64,000 bases of DNA. It comes from a virus. The position numbers and the translations under genes are program-made. The stretch is taken from positions 79,078 through 143,077 of IMG/VR virus record IMGVR_UViG_3300024999_000041, one strand, 5' to 3'. Below, one piece after another: positions 16,535-59,973 of the stretch. The notes under the pieces were generated by a model that saw nothing but the letters and a program-made list of their open reading frames with translations, did no database searches and had not been told where the DNA came from. Position 1 is the stretch's first letter. The number at the start of each line of letters is the position of its first letter.

Positions 16535-16645
16535 GTCTTTATAAAATCCACCCTCCCGAATTCCTACCTATAATATAAATAAAAAACCGTTGATTGATGG
16601 TTCAACGGTCAAAACCTTTATACATCTCTTACCTTTGGTAAGAGA

Positions 16646-26640: not shown

Positions 26641-26701
26641 AATTAAATCCTACCTCATTCCTATTTATAATATAAATTATCTTGAGGTAGTATTTTTAAA
26701 T

Positions 26702-29808: not shown

Positions 29809-30024
29809 TTATATTAATTTTTGTATTTTTAACAGAGGATTAAGTGCTCCTTCTATATCGGAGATTTTCTCAACAAAGAAACTTTCCCTAGGAGATACTA
29901 CTTTAGATTCTCCTTTAAGAACTATATTTATAGGGTAATCTGCTCTGGAAACGATTTTTGCTTCAAACATTTTATTATAACTCCTAATTAATACTTCAAT
30001 CCTATTTATAATATAAACTATCAA
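29809..30024 (-). CDS. Small hypothetical virion-region protein
   Basis: Likely true start MFEAK (about 29970) after AGGAG. Confidence 0.5.
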   Translation of the reverse strand: MIVYIINRIEVLIRSYNKMFEAKIVSRADYPINIVLKGESKVVSPRESFFVEKISDIEGALNPLLKIQKLI

Positions 30025-45072: not shown

Positions 45073-45151
45073 TTCTCCAAACTTATATAATATACATATT
45101 ATGTATTAAGCCTCTAATTATAATATAAATTAGACTTAATTAATTATAAAA

Positions 45152-50379: not shown

Positions 50380-51277
50380 TAGGTAGTTTATTGTGTTTCA
50401 ATAAAATGGAATAGATAACATCATGTTTAAATTTAAATTTAGAACTGTATGTTCTTAAATTAGGTAAAAATAAATTACTTAATTCTACAAGTTCTAACAC
50501 ATTTAATAATTGAAGTTCTTCTTTTTCTATGTACCTTCTTATTTTCTTACTCTGAGATTTATTTATGAGTTTATCTTTCTCGAAGGATAATAAAAGATTG
50601 ATGCAGGATTCAGAATCAGTATTAATATTTTGTAAATGTTGAATAGTTTTGTCAATATTAGTTTTCTTAGTATTGTCGATTAAATCTAAAAAATATCTAT
50701 TATGGTCTGTCTCTGGAAGAACTTCATTTTTTAATTTTATCTTCGTATCTGGAATCAATATTTCAGAATTTTTCTCCGAATCCACCGAACTAATTTTGTA
50801 GAAACCTACATTAACCACCATCGATTTAGAGAATAAAATAGGATAGTCAATAAAAGTTCCGAGCATATAGGTATCATTAACCACCTTATCCGCAGTCATA
50901 AAATATCTTTGATATCCCGCTTTTAAATCCTCCTCTATAAAAATCCAATCATTGCTAATAGGAACCCTATCTCCCAACTCAGTAAAATAATCAGAATCTA
51001 ACAAAGTAACAAATTCCACTATATCATTTCTTTTTAAAATTATTAATTCCTTGTCTTGAGGAGTAAATAGCTGTTTCTGATTTAATAATAATTCCATCTG
51101 AGTTTCTACGGGCTGTTTTATAAAATAATTTACAGGTATTTTTAAGGTTTTAAGAAAGGTTTCAATACCTGAATTAGACATTTTAAAAGGATAATTGTCC
51201 TCGAAAAATTTATCAATCTCCTTAACACTTAAATTATAGATTTCCCCGTTTAAGTATTTATCCCTAATTAGTTTCAT
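50342..51277 (-). CDS. Hypothetical protein (DUF932-like N-terminus)
   Basis: L.IP..YF.K.P......L pattern. Confidence 0.45.
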   Translation of the reverse strand: MKLIRDKYLNGEIYNLSVKEIDKFFEDNYPFKMSNSGIETFLKTLKIPVNYFIKQPVETQMELLLNQKQLFTPQDKELIILKRNDIVEFVTLLDSDYFTELGDRVPISNDWIFIEEDLKAGYQRYFMTADKVVNDTYMLGTFIDYPILFSKSMVVNVGFYKISSVDSEKNSEILIPDTKIKLKNEVLPETDHNRYFLDLIDNTKKTNIDKTIQHLQNINTDSESCINLLLSFEKDKLINKSQSKKIRRYIEKEELQLLNVLELVELSNLFLPNLRTYSSKFKFKHDVIYSILLKHNKLPNVDFIQDFQEGY

Positions 51278-51995
51278 ATATTCCTCCTAAATCTTCTATA
51301 GCAAATTTTAGTTTATCTAAAAAAATATTTAATCCCGAAGGATTACTTAAAAACATAGCACAATCTTTATGTGCTGGAGTAACAACTTTATGCTGAACAT
51401 GCCAATCTGTGGAAGTAGTTAAAATTCTATGTATTCTATTTTCTTCTTTATTTACAGATTTCTTACCTACGTTGTCTATTTTATCTTCATCATTATCGTA
51501 ACAAAATATTATCTTAGAGACAGTATTCTTAAATATTTCTAAATTGCTAATAGTTATCTCAGAGCCATTTAAAGCTAGGCAATATTTGTAATATTGTTTT
51601 AACCATATAGCATCTTTAACACCTTCACAAATTATAACAGGTTTGGTATAGTCAAAATCAGAAAAATCCTCCCACCCAAATATAGGGGGAATGTTGTTTT
51701 TATAATCAAAAATAGTTCTATACTCTTTTTTATCATAACTTCTCAAAACAAAACCTATGATTTTTTTACTGGGGGTAGCTAAAGGAATCATCCAAAAACA
51801 AGGATTTTCTTCAAAATACTTCCAAAAACTTTTAATAGGATACTGATATTTTATAGTATCCTTAACAAAAACTAAACCCACAGGTAATCCCTTCTTCAAT
51901 TGAAAACATGTATAGTTTTCATTAGTTTCTGGAACTAACCCACACACAGGTATAGAATGTTTATAAAGTTTTATAAAATCCTCTAACAAACCCAA
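51264..51995 (-). CDS. DnaG-type primase catalytic (Toprim) domain lacking a Zn-binding domain
   Basis: MIPL......IIGF..R.....Y, IFG, ICEGVKDAI, ALNG, CYDND..G, KD. Confidence 0.82.
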   Translation of the reverse strand: MGLLEDFIKLYKHSIPVCGLVPETNENYTCFQLKKGLPVGLVFVKDTIKYQYPIKSFWKYFEENPCFWMIPLATPSKKIIGFVLRSYDKKEYRTIFDYKNNIPPIFGWEDFSDFDYTKPVIICEGVKDAIWLKQYYKYCLALNGSEITISNLEIFKNTVSKIIFCYDNDEDKIDNVGKKSVNKEENRIHRILTTSTDWHVQHKVVTPAHKDCAMFLSNPSGLNIFLDKLKFAIEDLGGIYETN

Positions 51996-52019: not shown

Positions 52020-52048
52020 ATTATAACATAACACAAAGGATATGTCAA
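52020..52048 (-). promoter_or_regulatory. Consensus sigma70 promoter for primase-sigma-terminase operon
   Basis: TTGACA-17-TATAAT with TG extension. Confidence 0.85.
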
Positions 52049-52155
52049 TACCGTTACAAGATTAAATTTTAATTAAAATGAGGCAAGTATTACAAAACGC
52101 TAAGATGACAGAGTGTGGTCAATGAGCAAAAGTAATTTAGCCTAAAGTCAGTGAT

Positions 52156-52217
52156 GACAAGATACAATTACTACTATGTAAGTTTGTATAGTTTCATTTC
52201 TTGTTATTAAGATTAAT
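52156..52217. repeat. 62-bp direct repeat copy 1 (hairpin-forming)
   Basis: gacaagatacaattactactatgtaagtttgtatagtttcatttcttgttattaagattaat, identical to 52574-52635. Confidence 0.95.
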
Positions 52218-52522
52218 GATAGTAGTTTTCCATATACAATCCAAGCTTACTCTTCTTAACAGGTATTAATAACCTATTCTCCTCAAAGAGAGATAACTGT
52301 GAACGTGCTTTTTAACCTATTATTATAACAGGTTAGGGCTTTAAAAGAACAACTGTATGGGAAACTTCTGTAACTATTTAAGTGAGATTGCTTTTTTTAT
52401 CAGCGTTTCACCCAGTACATTCATCTCTACGAGATGGTTTAACAATTTACTTACAGGGAGATTTCGTTGTTGCATACAGAAGAGTATTAACCATTTCTTC
52501 AGCATTTTACCCATCTGATAAC

Positions 52523-52551
52523 ATTTTAGCATATTATAACAATTATGTCAA
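52523..52551 (-). promoter_or_regulatory. Sigma70 promoter reading into the non-coding locus
   Basis: TTGACA-17-TAAAAT with TG extension. Confidence 0.75.
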
Positions 52552-52573
52552 GATTTTAATTCCTTCAGTTTCC

Positions 52574-52635
52574 GACAAGATACAATTACTACTATGTAAG
52601 TTTGTATAGTTTCATTTCTTGTTATTAAGATTAAT
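52574..52635. repeat. 62-bp direct repeat copy 2
   Basis: Identical to 52156-52217. Confidence 0.95.
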
Positions 52636-52675
52636 TCTCTAAAGAGAAAAGAAATATAAATATATTTATATAATA

Positions 52676-53080
52676 TTAAACTCTATAATAAGGAGTTTTA
52701 TAAACTCCCATATCTCCAAATAAGTCTAACTTATAATTTCTTTTATCTGCTATTCTTTTTTTAAAATTATTACTAATATTTAACTCTGCTAATTCATTGA
52801 AAAGATTCTGAATAAATTCAGAATTAAATAGGTTATGTAATCTATCTGTTTTCTTAAGATTGTTAAAACTAACTATTAAGCATATAGAATTACCGTCTCT
52901 ATGATAATCAAATTTTGCTTTATACAACTTTCCTAAAGCTTCCTCTTTTTTATACCTGTCTAAAATTTTCATGACATCGTAGATATCTGATTTAATTATT
53001 TCCTCTTCTTCGTCATGAAGAACATCTTCTTTTTCTAAATCTAACTTATCCATTATCTGTTTTATAAAATCTAAAGACAT
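52676..53080 (-). CDS. Hypothetical late protein
   Basis: Preceded by late motif at 53112. Confidence 0.6.
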   Translation of the reverse strand: MSLDFIKQIMDKLDLEKEDVLHDEEEEIIKSDIYDVMKILDRYKKEEALGKLYKAKFDYHRDGNSICLIVSFNNLKKTDRLHNLFNSEFIQNLFNELAELNISNNFKKRIADKRNYKLDLFGDMGVYKTPYYRV

Positions 53081-53172
53081 AAATCCACCCTGACGTATTA
53101 TGTTTTCTAAATATAATATAAAAATATCCGTCGATTTAGGGTCGACGGATACAAACTTATTATAGTTAATTA

Positions 53173-56830: not shown

Positions 56831-59155
56831 TTATGCTAAAGGAGCTTCTACGTATTCGATAAGTACCGTAGCAGAACCTATAACAGGAGAACCAGCTACT
56901 ACGACTCTAGCAACACCTACGTTAGTTGCACCTACTGTCAAGAAAGGTCTTGATTCGTATGCGTTAGCTGTTTCAGCATCATTATCTCCAGTAGCTTGAA
57001 TTTCTAAGTCGGTAGCACCGTCTACGATAACTTGAAGAGTAGCACCTGCTGAATAAACTGAGTTTATTCTAGTTGTTACTGATTTAACAATAGCATTTTC
57101 AGGGATTGATGTAGTGGAACTTACGCTCGAAGTACCAACTGTTATCGCTATGTGTTTTGCTAAACCGTTAGATGTAGCGATACCAGAAAGTAAGTTAGCT
57201 TTTGTTATTTTCTTGTTAGTGCCAGAATCGTTAATTAACAATTCATCACTGTCGTCTGCTGATGTTGCAGCCGTTAGACTAGCGATGTCTACATAACTAC
57301 CAGAAACTTTACTATCTTTAAGTAAAACACCGTCTATGCTAACACCATTAGCAGGTGTTAATTCAGAGATAGTGTCCACTTTAACAGCTCCAGAGAAGGA
57401 TTTGTCTCCTGTTACTGTTTCAGTACCAGCTAAATGGACAACTGCTGAATCTGTAGCTAATGTTGAAACGTCTTTACCATCGACTAAACCATCTTTAATA
57501 AGAACTGTTTCAATGGTAACACCAGCATCAAGAGTAGATTCTACGATATCATCAGTTTTTATACCACCCGAGAAATCTTTTTGACCTGTAACAACTTCAG
57601 CACCTGATAAATGGACAACTGCTGAATCTGTAGCTAATGTTGAAACATCCATACCATCGACTAAACCGTCTTTGATAAGAACTCCATCAACAGTAACACC
57701 AGCGTTAAGGGTAGATTCTAAGATATTATCTGTTTTAAGGTCATCTTGGAAATCTTTTTGACCAGTTATTGCTTCAGCACCAGCTAAGTGGACAACTGCG
57801 GAATCGACTGCCAAGCCAGCAACCAAGTTTGATTTTTGCATTTTTCTATAAGCTGTAGCAGAAGCATCGTATATAGGTAAGAAATCTCCATCTGCTATGC
57901 TTGTTTCTTCTGTTAATGTATTAAAGTTATCGTCAGCAGGTCTTCCAGTTAAATCAGTATAAGCTTTTGTAGCTAAATCTGCTAAGGAAGAACCTGTTTT
58001 GTCTATTTTAGACCATGCTATAGCTGCTGTAGCAGAAACCTCGTTGTTTGTGATTCCGCCAGCTTTAACTCTTAATATATCTGTATTTATTTCAATGGTA
58101 GAATCGTCGACTTTAACTTCTAAAGAACCGTCGACATTTTGACCTAAACCAGAACCCGCCACATCAGCGTTAATTTTATCTTTATCTACTGAATCGTTTG
58201 CTAATTTTGCTGTAGATATTCCTAAGTCTTTAACTCTTAACGTATCTGTATTAATTTCTATAGTAGTAGCATCTACGTTTACACTTAGGGTATTACCTGT
58301 TTTTGAAAGTCCATCACCAGCCAGAACTTGACCAGCACCAGAGAATTGAGCAAATGCTAACGCTGTTGTATCAACTGTGATAGGATTATCTGTAGTTAAT
58401 ACAAAACCTGCATCGGCTAAGGTACTACCTGCTTCTACGAAGAAGAATGAACCCGATACTACTTCGGATGCAGGGCTTCCATCAAAATCTGTAGCTCTTG
58501 TTAATACGAATGGATTGGATACATCACCGACAGCAGTTACAACATAAATACCGTTATCTACTCCTGCTACTTGGTTTTTAACTAATATTCTATCACCTGC
58601 CACAACAGCAATACCATCTATAGATAAAGCACCATTAGCATCTGCTGTTAAAGTCTTACCAACTTGAGAACCAGAAGGTGTACAAGCAGGTAACACGTCC
58701 ACACTAGCTAGTCTAACAGGAGCATGTACTGTTAAACCCTGAGCTACTGAGTCTACGTATGCTTTTGTGGCTGCATCTTGAGCTACTGTAGGGTCTGCCA
58801 CACTTGTTAATTTAAAACCACCCATTGATTGAGCTGCCGTAAATGCAACCGTACCATCTTTTTTAATAACTGTGGAGTCAACTGCTAATGTTGAAACATC
58901 CATACCATCTACTAAACCATCTTTAATAAGAACTGTTTCAATGGTAACACCAGCATCGGTTGTTTTTTCTGTGATAGTATCTGTTAAAACTGAAGTATTG
59001 GCTGTTAAACTGTCTACTGTAAGATTTTTTAAAGCCGAACCATCAAAACTTCTAACTTCAAAACCGTTGGTTACTTTTCTAAGCATAATGCCTTTAGGAC
59101 CACCGATTAAGAAATCAGTTTTCATAGTACCTAATAACACTGAAAATAATGACAT
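56831..59155 (-). CDS. Virion fibre/decoration protein with internal repeats
   Basis: ADPTVAQDAATKAYVD, GDRILVKNQ...NGIY..., QFSGAG...AGDGL.KTGNTL, repeated AGVT(I/V)..VLIKDGLVDG.DVSTLA and SAVVHLAG.E..TG.K.F. Confidence 0.75.
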   Translation of the reverse strand: MSLFSVLLGTMKTDFLIGGPKGIMLRKVTNGFEVRSFDGSALKNLTVDSLTANTSVLTDTITEKTTDAGVTIETVLIKDGLVDGMDVSTLAVDSTVIKKDGTVAFTAAQSMGGFKLTSVADPTVAQDAATKAYVDSVAQGLTVHAPVRLASVDVLPACTPSGSQVGKTLTADANGALSIDGIAVVAGDRILVKNQVAGVDNGIYVVTAVGDVSNPFVLTRATDFDGSPASEVVSGSFFFVEAGSTLADAGFVLTTDNPITVDTTALAFAQFSGAGQVLAGDGLSKTGNTLSVNVDATTIEINTDTLRVKDLGISTAKLANDSVDKDKINADVAGSGLGQNVDGSLEVKVDDSTIEINTDILRVKAGGITNNEVSATAAIAWSKIDKTGSSLADLATKAYTDLTGRPADDNFNTLTEETSIADGDFLPIYDASATAYRKMQKSNLVAGLAVDSAVVHLAGAEAITGQKDFQDDLKTDNILESTLNAGVTVDGVLIKDGLVDGMDVSTLATDSAVVHLSGAEVVTGQKDFSGGIKTDDIVESTLDAGVTIETVLIKDGLVDGKDVSTLATDSAVVHLAGTETVTGDKSFSGAVKVDTISELTPANGVSIDGVLLKDSKVSGSYVDIASLTAATSADDSDELLINDSGTNKKITKANLLSGIATSNGLAKHIAITVGTSSVSSTTSIPENAIVKSVTTRINSVYSAGATLQVIVDGATDLEIQATGDNDAETANAYESRPFLTVGATNVGVARVVVAGSPVIGSATVLIEYVEAPLA

Positions 59156-59248
59156 TCTAATTCTCCTACTCTTTTCTACTACGTATGTATAATTATATTA
59201 ATTTTTGGCAACAAGCCTTCATATATAATATAAATTAAAAAATTTGTA

Positions 59249-59854
59249 CTAACTTGAAAATATTACAATCTTTCCAGAACCAGTTATAGGATTTCCTGTA
59301 AAGTATATTTTTACTGTAGTATCTGCTGGGTATACATATTCGCTTCCAACTATGTAGCTACTTGCATAGGTTACATCATTATCGGTAGAAGTCATTAATC
59401 TTGAATTGTCTCCAGCATCCCCAACTGTTATACTTCCCACATCGAAAGGATTATCTATTATAAGTTTTATTTCTTCTATATTTAAATTAGCTTTTAATAT
59501 CCCGATATCTAAGGAACCAGAGATAAAATCAGAATATATGAAATCTAACTCTATTGAAGGGTTTCCTCCAGATAAAGCAACTTCAGCTTCGTCTACTATG
59601 TTATTTAAGTTAGCATCGTAAACGTCTTTAACCATGATACCGTCATGACCAAGTTGTTTACCGTCCAATATATCGTCCTGACTTACAACATACCCATCCA
59701 ATAAAACTAAGTCTGGGAAAGGAGATATGGCTTCCCTTACCTGAGCTTCTGTAAATTGTAAAGGTACGTTTATAGTCGTATCTTCTGCTATCTTTAGATT
59801 TCCTAATAGGTACACATAAGCTGTATTTTTTAATGATTTATTTTTAATTCTCAT
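59249..59854 (-). CDS. Hypothetical virion protein
   Basis: M.K.VYD.N.N.IVD.AE motif and beta-rich C-terminus resembling the end of the fibre protein; late motifs upstream. Confidence 0.55.
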   Translation of the reverse strand: MRIKNKSLKNTAYVYLLGNLKIAEDTTINVPLQFTEAQVREAISPFPDLVLLDGYVVSQDDILDGKQLGHDGIMVKDVYDANLNNIVDEAEVALSGGNPSIELDFIYSDFISGSLDIGILKANLNIEEIKLIIDNPFDVGSITVGDAGDNSRLMTSTDNDVTYASSYIVGSEYVYPADTTVKIYFTGNPITGSGKIVIFSS

Positions 59855-59973
59855 TATTTATTCCTCTCTACTATTTATAATATAAATGAAATAGAGTCAG
59901 TTCTCAAATATAATATAAACCCAATCCTTTTGGGATTGGGTAGAAATAAATACGTATTTATGGCTGACAATTT

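Follow-up and report, generated by a model that had tools for sequence, protein, structure and literature searches.

In the T4 origins oriF and oriG, the T7 phi1.1A/B origin, and ColE1 RNA II, a strong promoter reads into an AT-rich element located by a replication gene, and in ColE1 a long structured transcript determines priming. The replication cis element crr of phage P4, which is used by the primase, consists of two long direct repeats. Identical direct repeats also lie on both sides of an RNA unit in CRISPR arrays and among the ToxI repeats of type III antitoxins, and in phage pseudo-ToxI the number of repeats changes by recombination. T4-type phages carry promoter-early stem-loops, or PeSLs (Arbiol et al. 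2010, PMC2839356; Comeau et al. 2014, PMC4122927), and homologous recombination has been proposed to shuffle or excise modules at these motifs (PMC4122927; PMC2839356).

Here, we analyze a locus that combines identical repeats, promoters, and a putative structured RNA in a 64-kb window (i.e. the whole stretch of viral DNA under study, 64,000 nt). The source is an uncultured large phage, and the module fronts its only primase gene; neither the DNA of the locus nor the primase protein has a match in the cultured-phage collection, and a literature search returned no description of this repeat-promoter-RNA layout. The module occupies a gap of about 680 bp between a gene of 134 aa (52676-53080, minus strand) and a Toprim primase-like gene (51264-51995, minus strand). 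In minus-sense order, the features are as follows:

52676-53080, minus strand: gene of 134 aa, upstream neighbor of the gap
52671-52636, minus strand: palindrome and U-rich run, the first elements of the gap
52654..52671, minus strand: perfect 18-bp palindrome ATATAAATATATTTATAT, starting 4 nt past the stop of the 134-aa gene
52574..52635, minus strand: upstream copy of repeat R, 62 nt, GC 0.23, with three-base periodicity
52523..52551, minus strand: promoter P2 (TTGACA, 17 nt, TG-n-TAAAAT)
52218..52516, minus strand: core X of the putative structured non-coding RNA, about 300 nt, with predicted multibranch 5' and 3' domains
52156..52217, minus strand: downstream copy of repeat R, predicted weakly structured AU-rich tail of the X transcript
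52070..52143, minus strand: rod hairpin (52081-52143, z = -3.3) followed by CAUUUUAAUU
52020..52048, minus strand: promoter P1 (TTGACA, 17 nt, TG-n-TATAAT; 12/12 matches)
51264..51995, minus strand: DnaG-type Toprim primase-like gene, 243 aa, the conserved right-hand neighbor of the module

The primase-like protein matches Pfam Toprim_2 and PHROG DNA primase, as well as DnaG catalytic cores in the PDB (profile search). No zinc-finger or zinc-binding domain was found in this protein, and no zinc finger in the upstream 134-aa protein. The primase gene is the sole Toprim_2 gene in the complete 190-kb genome of a relative (G001), where a DnaB-like helicase gene lies 45 kb from it and the helicase and recombinase genes lie 45–55 kb from the module. 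The region 3' of the primase gene contains genes without assignment and, in relatives, a weakly sigma-like gene, followed by terminase-like, protease, and capsid genes. ARAGORN detects no tRNA or tmRNA at the locus.

Searches for related loci started from the primase protein, and the distant relatives were found with a nine-member primase profile. The close IMG/VR relatives by primase identity are L001 (83%, a 190-kb complete genome), L002 (82%), and L003 (60%), while the primases of the distant relatives are 48% (L024 and L025), 43% (L010), 42% (L011 and L012), and 27–30% (L028–L032) identical. We refer to the window and L001–L003 as lineage A, to L011 and L012 as lineage B, and to L028–L032 as lineage C. 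Nine loci from three or four lineages, with primases that are 27–100% identical, carry two identical AT-rich repeats of 55–98 nt located 408–1241 bp apart:

Window: repeat of 62 nt, period of 418 bp
L001: repeat of 60 nt, period of 419 bp
L002: repeat of 60 nt, period of 421 bp
L003: repeat of about 70 nt, period of 408 bp
L011: repeat of 63 nt, period of 559 bp
L012: repeat of 63 nt, period of 565 bp
L030: repeat of 90 nt, period of 734 bp
L032: repeat of 98 nt with one mismatch (99% identical), period of 770 bp
L031: repeat of at least 55 nt, period of 1241 bp

All nine loci (9/9) have exactly one TTGACA-17-TAnnnT promoter between the repeats, and it points at the primase. A second promoter stands just before the primase in lineages A and C; none was seen at this position in lineage B (L011 and L012), so the transcript of X and R would be a primase leader there. 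The intergenic region also aligns end to end among the window, L001, L002, and L003. The contig of L010 ends within the region, and what it covers comprises the promoter, one repeat, an X segment, and additional structured sequence. The flanking genes are kept in L024 and L025 and the module is absent, with a promoter and a 150-nt leader that contains short repeat-like remnants, and the layout is also absent from the more distant Toprim genes L013–L016. IMG/VR scans with the exact repeat and the conserved blocks returned only the three close relatives, and a motif scan for family C (L028–L032) returned no matches. Two matches to a two-block motif in bacterial genomes were attributed to chance and rejected by nhmmer.

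The two perfect 62-bp direct repeats that had been reported are indeed found at 52156-52217 and 52574-52635 (spacing 418), and they are the only two copies of R in the 64-kb window, where 0 are expected. R is the only perfect non-coding direct repeat of at least 35 nt in the window, and in the complete 190-kb genome of G001 the repeat is present at this locus only, in two full copies. The hairpin into which each copy was said to fold does not stand out from chance (z = -0.76; 43/200 shuffles fold equally well), and the folding of R is no better than chance in most lineages. We also rejected R as a hairpin or intrinsic terminator, as the hairpin is weak, is not followed by a U-run, and is not called by a consensus terminator scan. 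What does distinguish the repeats is composition—i.e. GC is 0.15–0.24 in R vs 0.32–0.37 in the enclosed segment across all lineages (0.23 for R of the window; 0.15–0.17 in the other lineages vs 0.34–0.37 inside)—and a period-3 A-purine-T pattern, for which every lineage gives a significant shuffle test (P = 0.02 to <0.0005). The coding sequence of the window genome scores as high for period 3 as R does, and R may thus descend from coding sequence. The indels of R between relatives are multiples of three, and its period (unit length) cannot be divided by three in the majority of lineages. Read as (T-A-R)n, the pattern resembles DnaA-trio single-stranded DNA elements; read as (A-R-N)n, it resembles motifs of the Hfq distal face; and the other strand is dense in Y-T-A triplets, which resemble primase start sites. 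No DnaA boxes were found flanking R and no clear short iterons within it. A WAGTART-like motif recurs in R of the window, L010, and L031 and not in the other lineages, and is hard to tell from low complexity.

The downstream copy of R agrees with L001 and L002 at 59/62 positions, against 87–92% for X. Over short evolutionary distances, R is more constrained than X (98% vs 87–92%). At one repeat position, the window has T and L001 and L002 have C in both copies, and such a window-specific change in both copies points to concerted evolution. Between lineages, the repeat sequences are unrelated or weakly related, while within a genome they are identical, with boundaries of identity that are sharp and roughly constant across relatives. 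Taken together, these patterns indicate that the repeats undergo concerted evolution. A RecA/UvsX-type recombinase gene is present in both G001 and G002. When the window is compared with L001 and L002, the pattern at informative sites changes from "window = L002" to "L001 = L002" at or inside the upstream repeat, and a second change occurs inside a conserved block of X; these changes place breakpoints of natural recombination in the module. The mosaic has moderate support, as several of the informative sites belong to one hairpin swap or one alignment shift. Tyrosine (PF00589) and serine (PF00239) recombinases are absent from G001 (100% complete) and G002, and so is reverse transcriptase (PF00078). 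We therefore rejected the attL and attR sites of an integrated element, which would have no cognate tyrosine or serine recombinase in these genomes, and a retroelement with a repeat-ended template RNA (DGR, retron, or DRT2-like), which would have no reverse transcriptase.

Our analyses partly support core X as a structured non-coding RNA in the minus-strand sense. Invariant blocks of up to 15 nt are shared by the window and L001–L003, and both X and R are better conserved than coding sequence nearby; for X, identity is 87% to L001 vs 81% for the adjacent coding sequence, and 73% between the window and L003 vs 68% for the primase coding sequence. The indels of X in the alignment of family A (the window and L001–L003) are not multiples of three; X has no conserved ORF, and alternative codes (TGA=W, TAG=Q) open no conserved frame. 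The minus-sense fold of family A has 92 predicted pairs, with 96% of cells paired. Of these pairs, 13/92 have changed on both sides, vs 4.4 in column shuffles (0/500 reach 13) and 0–4 in slid controls, in covariation statistics that are fragile with four sequences, three of them close. A local hairpin (CAUCUC/GAGAUG) covaries in three compensatory versions and displaces the stem GAGATGGTT/AACCATTTC that had been drawn from the window. In family C, 24/77 pairs are compensatory among five sequences (L028–L032) that are 60–96% identical. Coming from four and five sequences, the compensatory counts are supportive rather than conclusive.

Folding energies are less distinctive. The comparison with dinucleotide shuffles had been set beforehand as a check on the nested-stem fold, and it does not single out the 555-nt region (z = -0.25 on the + strand and -0.98 on the minus strand) or X alone on its sense strand (z = -1.49); X of L011 gives z = -0.45. 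When the window was compared with the 4227 models of Rfam 15, the best scores were 15–28 bits, vs thresholds of 47–90 (E 0.37–4.6), with none in the core. Allowing E up to 1–5, no Rfam match to the RNA was obtained in the window or in nine related loci, including L003, L010, L011, L025, and L028–L032; the sole match among L025 and L028–L032 is to a miRNA model (E 0.0025, 34/80 bits) and lies inside the L028 primase gene. Motifs of X with a by-eye likeness to RNase P, 5S rRNA, tmRNA, or a group I intron receive no support from covariance models. The X segments of lineages A, B, and C share no homology detectable by blastn, nhmmer, MAFFT L-INS-i, or a covariance model built on the 5' domain of family A, so it is the layout, rather than one RNA, that is conserved. 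Either the RNA has diverged past recognition, or different RNAs occupy the same slot. The proposal of an undescribed phage ncRNA is backed by conservation, compensatory changes, and a conserved promoter, although the strand has to be revised to the minus, promoter-sense one.

The minus-strand sigma70 promoters previously noted beside the repeats are recovered at 52551..52523 (P2) and 52048..52020 (P1), and both are near consensus. P2 is of the extended -10 type, is kept in L001, L002, and L003, and presumably starts transcription near 52516. The upstream copy of R ends 23 nt before the -35 of P2, and because this copy lies upstream of P2, the repeats are not simply the duplicated terminal domain of a P2 transcript, as had been suggested. 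The downstream copy is 108 nt from P1, which appears to be the promoter of the primase operon. As already remarked in the original prediction, the + strand offers no clear promoter, and we found no conserved one. The bulged rod at 52081-52143 is clearly stable, as predicted (0/200 shuffles as good), and is retained in L001–L003 with some compensatory changes. A consensus terminator scan did not call it. Together with CAUUUUAAUU, this rod is a candidate terminator or 3' stabilizer of the X-R transcript, and it is a better terminator candidate than R. At the other end of the gap, the palindrome ATATAAATATATTTATAT is followed, in the minus sense, by a U-rich run (52636-52653). The palindrome stretch is 100% identical among the window, L001, and L002, and L003 has ATATACATATATGTATAT at this position—i.e. 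a compensatory change on both arms. It is a candidate for a weak terminator of the upstream gene or for a dimer-binding site. We also considered TATAAATA as a late promoter and rejected it, as it is not enriched (23 observed vs 21.7 expected).

The reading we lean to, with a confidence somewhat short of even, is that the module is an early structured-RNA gene or primase-operon leader, held in a cassette with repeats homogenized by recombination. Specifically, the primase operon would be headed by a cassette of some 418 bp that carries the RNA gene. The host sigma70 RNA polymerase would start at P2, near 52516, on the minus strand, and copy the folded core X of about 300 nt, followed by the AU-rich repeat copy 52217-52156. 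A stop or pause at the rod hairpin and its U-run would yield an RNA of about 445 nt, while read-through would join it to the primase message, and in lineage B, where the P2-type promoter is the only visible one, X-R would serve as the primase leader. Homologous recombination by the phage RecA/UvsX-type protein, through gene conversion or unequal exchange, would keep the repeats identical, and the repeats could double as homology anchors where related phages swap the module. The RNA would then be the functional product—i.e. a regulator or leader tied to the expression of the primase and of the downstream sigma-like gene. We infer the transcription, the 3' end, the homogenizing role of recombination, and the role of the RNA from sequence comparisons. 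Several observations sit uneasily with this explanation: the folding scores are weak (z = -1.49 for X in the sense strand, -0.45 for X of L011), the covariation of family A comes from four sequences of which three are close, X is not detectably homologous across lineages A, B, and C, and the place of the upstream copy relative to the hairpins varies among lineages. Furthermore, simple homogenization does not explain why selection has kept the two copies from diverging, why the short-term constraint on R exceeds that on X (98% vs 87–92%), or why identical repeats have persisted over such deep divergence when they should have deleted the cassette.

Other readings assign the sequence to a different strand or give the repeats a role of their own. 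The original prediction had offered, as one option, a large ncRNA on the + strand, where it would be antisense to the promoter at 52523-52551, with its terminal hairpin domain present twice. A consensus fold with 90 pairs and 13 compensatory changes does exist on this strand, with G-T wobbles in the 13-bp closing stem. However, the covariation term is +0.19 on the + strand vs -3.75 in the minus sense, which also has fewer broken pairs, so the wobble pairs do not speak for the + strand as had been claimed; the G-to-A changes of helix 6 keep pairing in the minus sense only, the + strand z is -0.25, no conserved + strand promoter was found, and the consensus promoter points the other way at every locus. 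We regard a + strand RNA as very unlikely. There is hardly any room for the repeats being the coding sequence, or the relic, of a small Asn/Ser-rich peptide. The genome's real coding sequence has an equal period-3 signal, most lineages have an open Asn-rich frame, and indels are multiples of three, but R lacks a start codon and has stops immediately upstream, an in-frame TGA interrupts both copies of the window, and the two copies lie in different sequence contexts. Third-position T is also over-represented even in four-fold codons, and triplet slippage explains the three-base indels; we accordingly rejected R as a translated peptide. A duplication created during assembly, raised earlier as a possible source of the repeat, falls in the same hardly credible class and is excluded as an artefact by the recurrence of the layout in independent assemblies from different samples and lineages. 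We find it improbable, if conceivable, that R acts on the RNA level, as an AU-rich (A-R-N)n platform for a protein (of the Hfq distal-face type, S1, or a phage repressor) or as an endonuclease entry site, with the repeats delimiting X and releasing it from longer early transcripts, as in CRISPR or ToxI units. Such a role would suit the near-chance folding of R in most lineages, its strand-asymmetric A-purine-U periodicity, the location of the downstream copy, with the folded core before it and a stable, U-tailed hairpin after it, and the upstream copy of L011, which begins 8 nt past the stop of the upstream gene—i.e. in its 3' UTR. By contrast, RNA recognition needs no perfect identity over 60–98 nt, the upstream copy of the window lies between a terminator-like palindrome and a strong promoter and may be poorly transcribed, and the upstream neighbor gene of L030 is convergent.

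Two further readings make direct use of the DNA of the repeats. One is a transcription-activated replication origin, which we consider unlikely but worth keeping in view, with the AT-rich repeats as unwinding or loading elements around a strong promoter. In detail, and with the same reserve, the X-R transcript would activate or prime replication, either from an R-loop formed with the downstream copy or by invasion of the upstream one, and the primase would start the lagging strand; the invasion route would explain why the identity of the repeats matters. The promoter P2, followed after about 300 nt by an AT-rich element (R, GC 0.23), reproduces the general layout of T4 oriF/oriG, the T7 primary origin, and ColE1, and the contrast in GC between R and the enclosed segment, the presumed likeness of its periodicity to the DnaA-trio, and the dense Y-T-A triplets of the other strand point the same way. 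The module also always adjoins the only primase gene of the phage, and the cis replication region of P4 has two long direct repeats bound by its primase. On the other hand, cumulative GC skew runs straight through the locus, with none of the inflection that had been suggested as a sign of an origin, and the non-template strand of X is not biased toward G (GC skew 0.02–0.15); both results count mildly against an R-loop origin, and neither is decisive for a T4-like phage, in which skew carries little information. The strong conservation and compensatory pairs of X are also more readily expected of a functional folded RNA than of a simple primer, the related lineage L024/L025 lacks the module, helicase and recombinase genes are 45–55 kb off in G001, and clear short iterons are missing from R. 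The other is an excisable or amplifiable element, in which recombination between the repeats would generate a 418-bp circle (promoter, RNA gene, and one repeat) or tandem arrays. We rate this as rather doubtful, and equally so the suggestion that it would provide copy-number control or mobility for the RNA gene, as a locus-specific analogue of PeSL-mediated minicircles. Perfect repeats of 55–98 nt persist down to 27% primase identity, even though they would be expected to destabilize the cassette, and their identity has sharp, roughly constant limits. The phages have RecA/UvsX-type recombinases of their own and neither a site-specific recombinase nor a reverse transcriptase, a mosaic breakpoint falls at the upstream repeat, and PeSL terminator/promoter motifs have been proposed to shuffle modules by recombination (PMC4122927; PMC2839356). 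Nevertheless, the 190-kb genome has no other copy of the repeat and thus no second landing site, every assembly found shows exactly one unit, with no deleted or amplified form seen, and gene conversion could leave the repeats identical as a passive side effect.

The layout survives divergence of the primase down to 27% identity while the sequences of the repeats and of the RNA turn over completely, which argues that repeat identity is selected or actively regenerated. Given that perfect repeats are conserved across deep lineages, a role that depends on their identity is plausible. It is less likely, in our opinion, that identity is the mechanism itself—i.e. that the phage recombinase uses the repeats to excise or amplify a minicircle of about 418 bp with only a strong promoter and the structured-RNA gene, or that the tail of the transcript invades the upstream copy to start replication. 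If this were true, large uncultured phages of a deep clade would conserve a self-contained, repeat-defined RNA-gene replicon in front of their primase operon. We likewise see a small but appreciable chance that something mechanistically new operates at this locus. Little has been charted of the conserved non-coding elements of large lytic phages, and the locus would contribute at least two RNA families not represented in Rfam. It also offers a natural case of how recombination-proficient phages maintain and use internal direct repeats, and one for studying phage regulation or the start of replication, and the roles of early structured phage RNAs.

How does the locus compare with the systems already described? 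With PeSLs, it shares a large T4-like phage and repeated units that bracket a module together with near-consensus sigma70 early promoters. PeSLs are, however, short motifs that combine a terminator with a promoter; hyperplastic regions contain many copies of them, next to protein ORFs on either side, whereas R is 55–98 nt long, AT-rich, and triplet-periodic, has no significant hairpin, occurs in two copies at one locus, and brackets an RNA gene. As for the PeSL order of a stem-loop directly followed by a promoter, the upstream copy is 23 nt from a consensus promoter but its hairpin is at chance level (z = -0.76), and the downstream copy is 108 nt from P1. Many dispersed copies are likewise not seen, with only two in G001 (190 kb) and two in the 64-kb window. 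Compared with promoter-plus-unwinding-element origins, the locus shows no clear iterons and no skew signal, and no origin is known in which two identical, concertedly evolving elements flank a conserved structured RNA. The likeness to repeat-delimited RNA units is that identical flanking repeats could give identical processing sites. Unlike CRISPR and ToxI, which have units of 30–70 nt, the units here are 418–1241 nt long, number about 1.15, and contain an internal promoter. A CRISPR-like or ToxI-like array was rejected, as there are two repeats only, the spacer is at least 356 nt, and no cas gene or toxN-like nuclease was found near the locus. GOLLD, ROOL, and HEARO resemble the module as multi-domain phage-encoded non-coding RNAs of about 300–500 nt, yet these families are not bracketed by identical repeats, and the locus matches no Rfam model. 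Although it departs from at least one defining feature of each, the layout of this locus is nearest to PeSL cassettes, to promoter-plus-unwinding-element origins, and to repeat-delimited RNA units.

Conservation around the module extends upstream of the repeats, into the gap that separates them from the 134-aa gene, where one element stands out:

Window 52654-52671: perfect 18-bp palindrome, ATATAAATATATTTATAT, beginning 4 nt past the stop codon of the 134-aa gene; a U-rich run comes next.

The 55-nt stretch that contains this palindrome and reaches to the repeat is 100% identical among the window and its close relatives L001 and L002, whereas the adjoining coding sequence is ~81% identical. 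In a third close relative, L003, the counterpart, ATATACATATATGTATAT, is altered on both arms.

More distant relatives carry further elements, both within the repeat-bounded interval and downstream of it:

L030:1575-1612, L031:487-522, L032:237-270: conserved hairpin, with the upstream repeat on one side and the internal promoter on the other.
L031:1297-1800: second G+C-richer, ORF-poor segment, between the downstream repeat and the primase promoter or start.
L010:420-790: second G+C-richer, ORF-poor segment, in the same position.

The stem of the hairpin, found in these three lineage C loci, covaries (CUCCUAAG/CUUAGGAG, CCUCUAAG/CUUAGAGG), and its purine-rich loop, AAGAAAGGAAAA, is invariant. 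The second segment is 380-500 nt long and structured in appearance; it has no match in Rfam, and may represent an additional RNA or a long leader.

In L025 and L024, whose primase is 48% identical, both flanking genes are kept, and just a promoter and a 150-nt leader lie between them (L025:2286-2500). Short repeat-like remnants, AATAATAGTAAAATAAC and AATAGTTCTAATAGTAGATATTAT, are present at the expected positions of the two repeats, and this site may have decayed or may never have been filled.

The downstream neighbour of the module (window 51264-51995; G001 170785-170985) is the sole Toprim/DnaG-like gene of the 190-kb phage, and its product lacks a zinc-binding domain. The gene adjoins packaging and head genes, and the DnaB-like helicase is encoded 45 kb away. 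Minus-strand structural genes are preceded by a recurrent motif, which is probably the late promoter of the phage:

Window 16547-16584, 26644-26681, 29985-30022, 45087-45132, 59192-59237, 59854-59891: CTATTTATAATATAAA, written on the plus strand.

No enrichment is seen for the plain T4 late box, TATAAATA, which occurs 23 times against 21.7 expected. Separately, one structural gene, encoding a 774-aa protein with matches to tail-fibre and head-decoration families, contains three tandem 177-nt coding repeats (57298-57828; 62-82% identical) and a fourth copy 1.2 kb off (58827-58985).

The phage's ordinary terminators are exemplified by the following:

Window 53124-53152: canonical G+C-rich intrinsic terminator, with an 11-bp stem and a U-run, 3' of the 172-aa gene.

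The 62-nt repeat is unlike such terminators.
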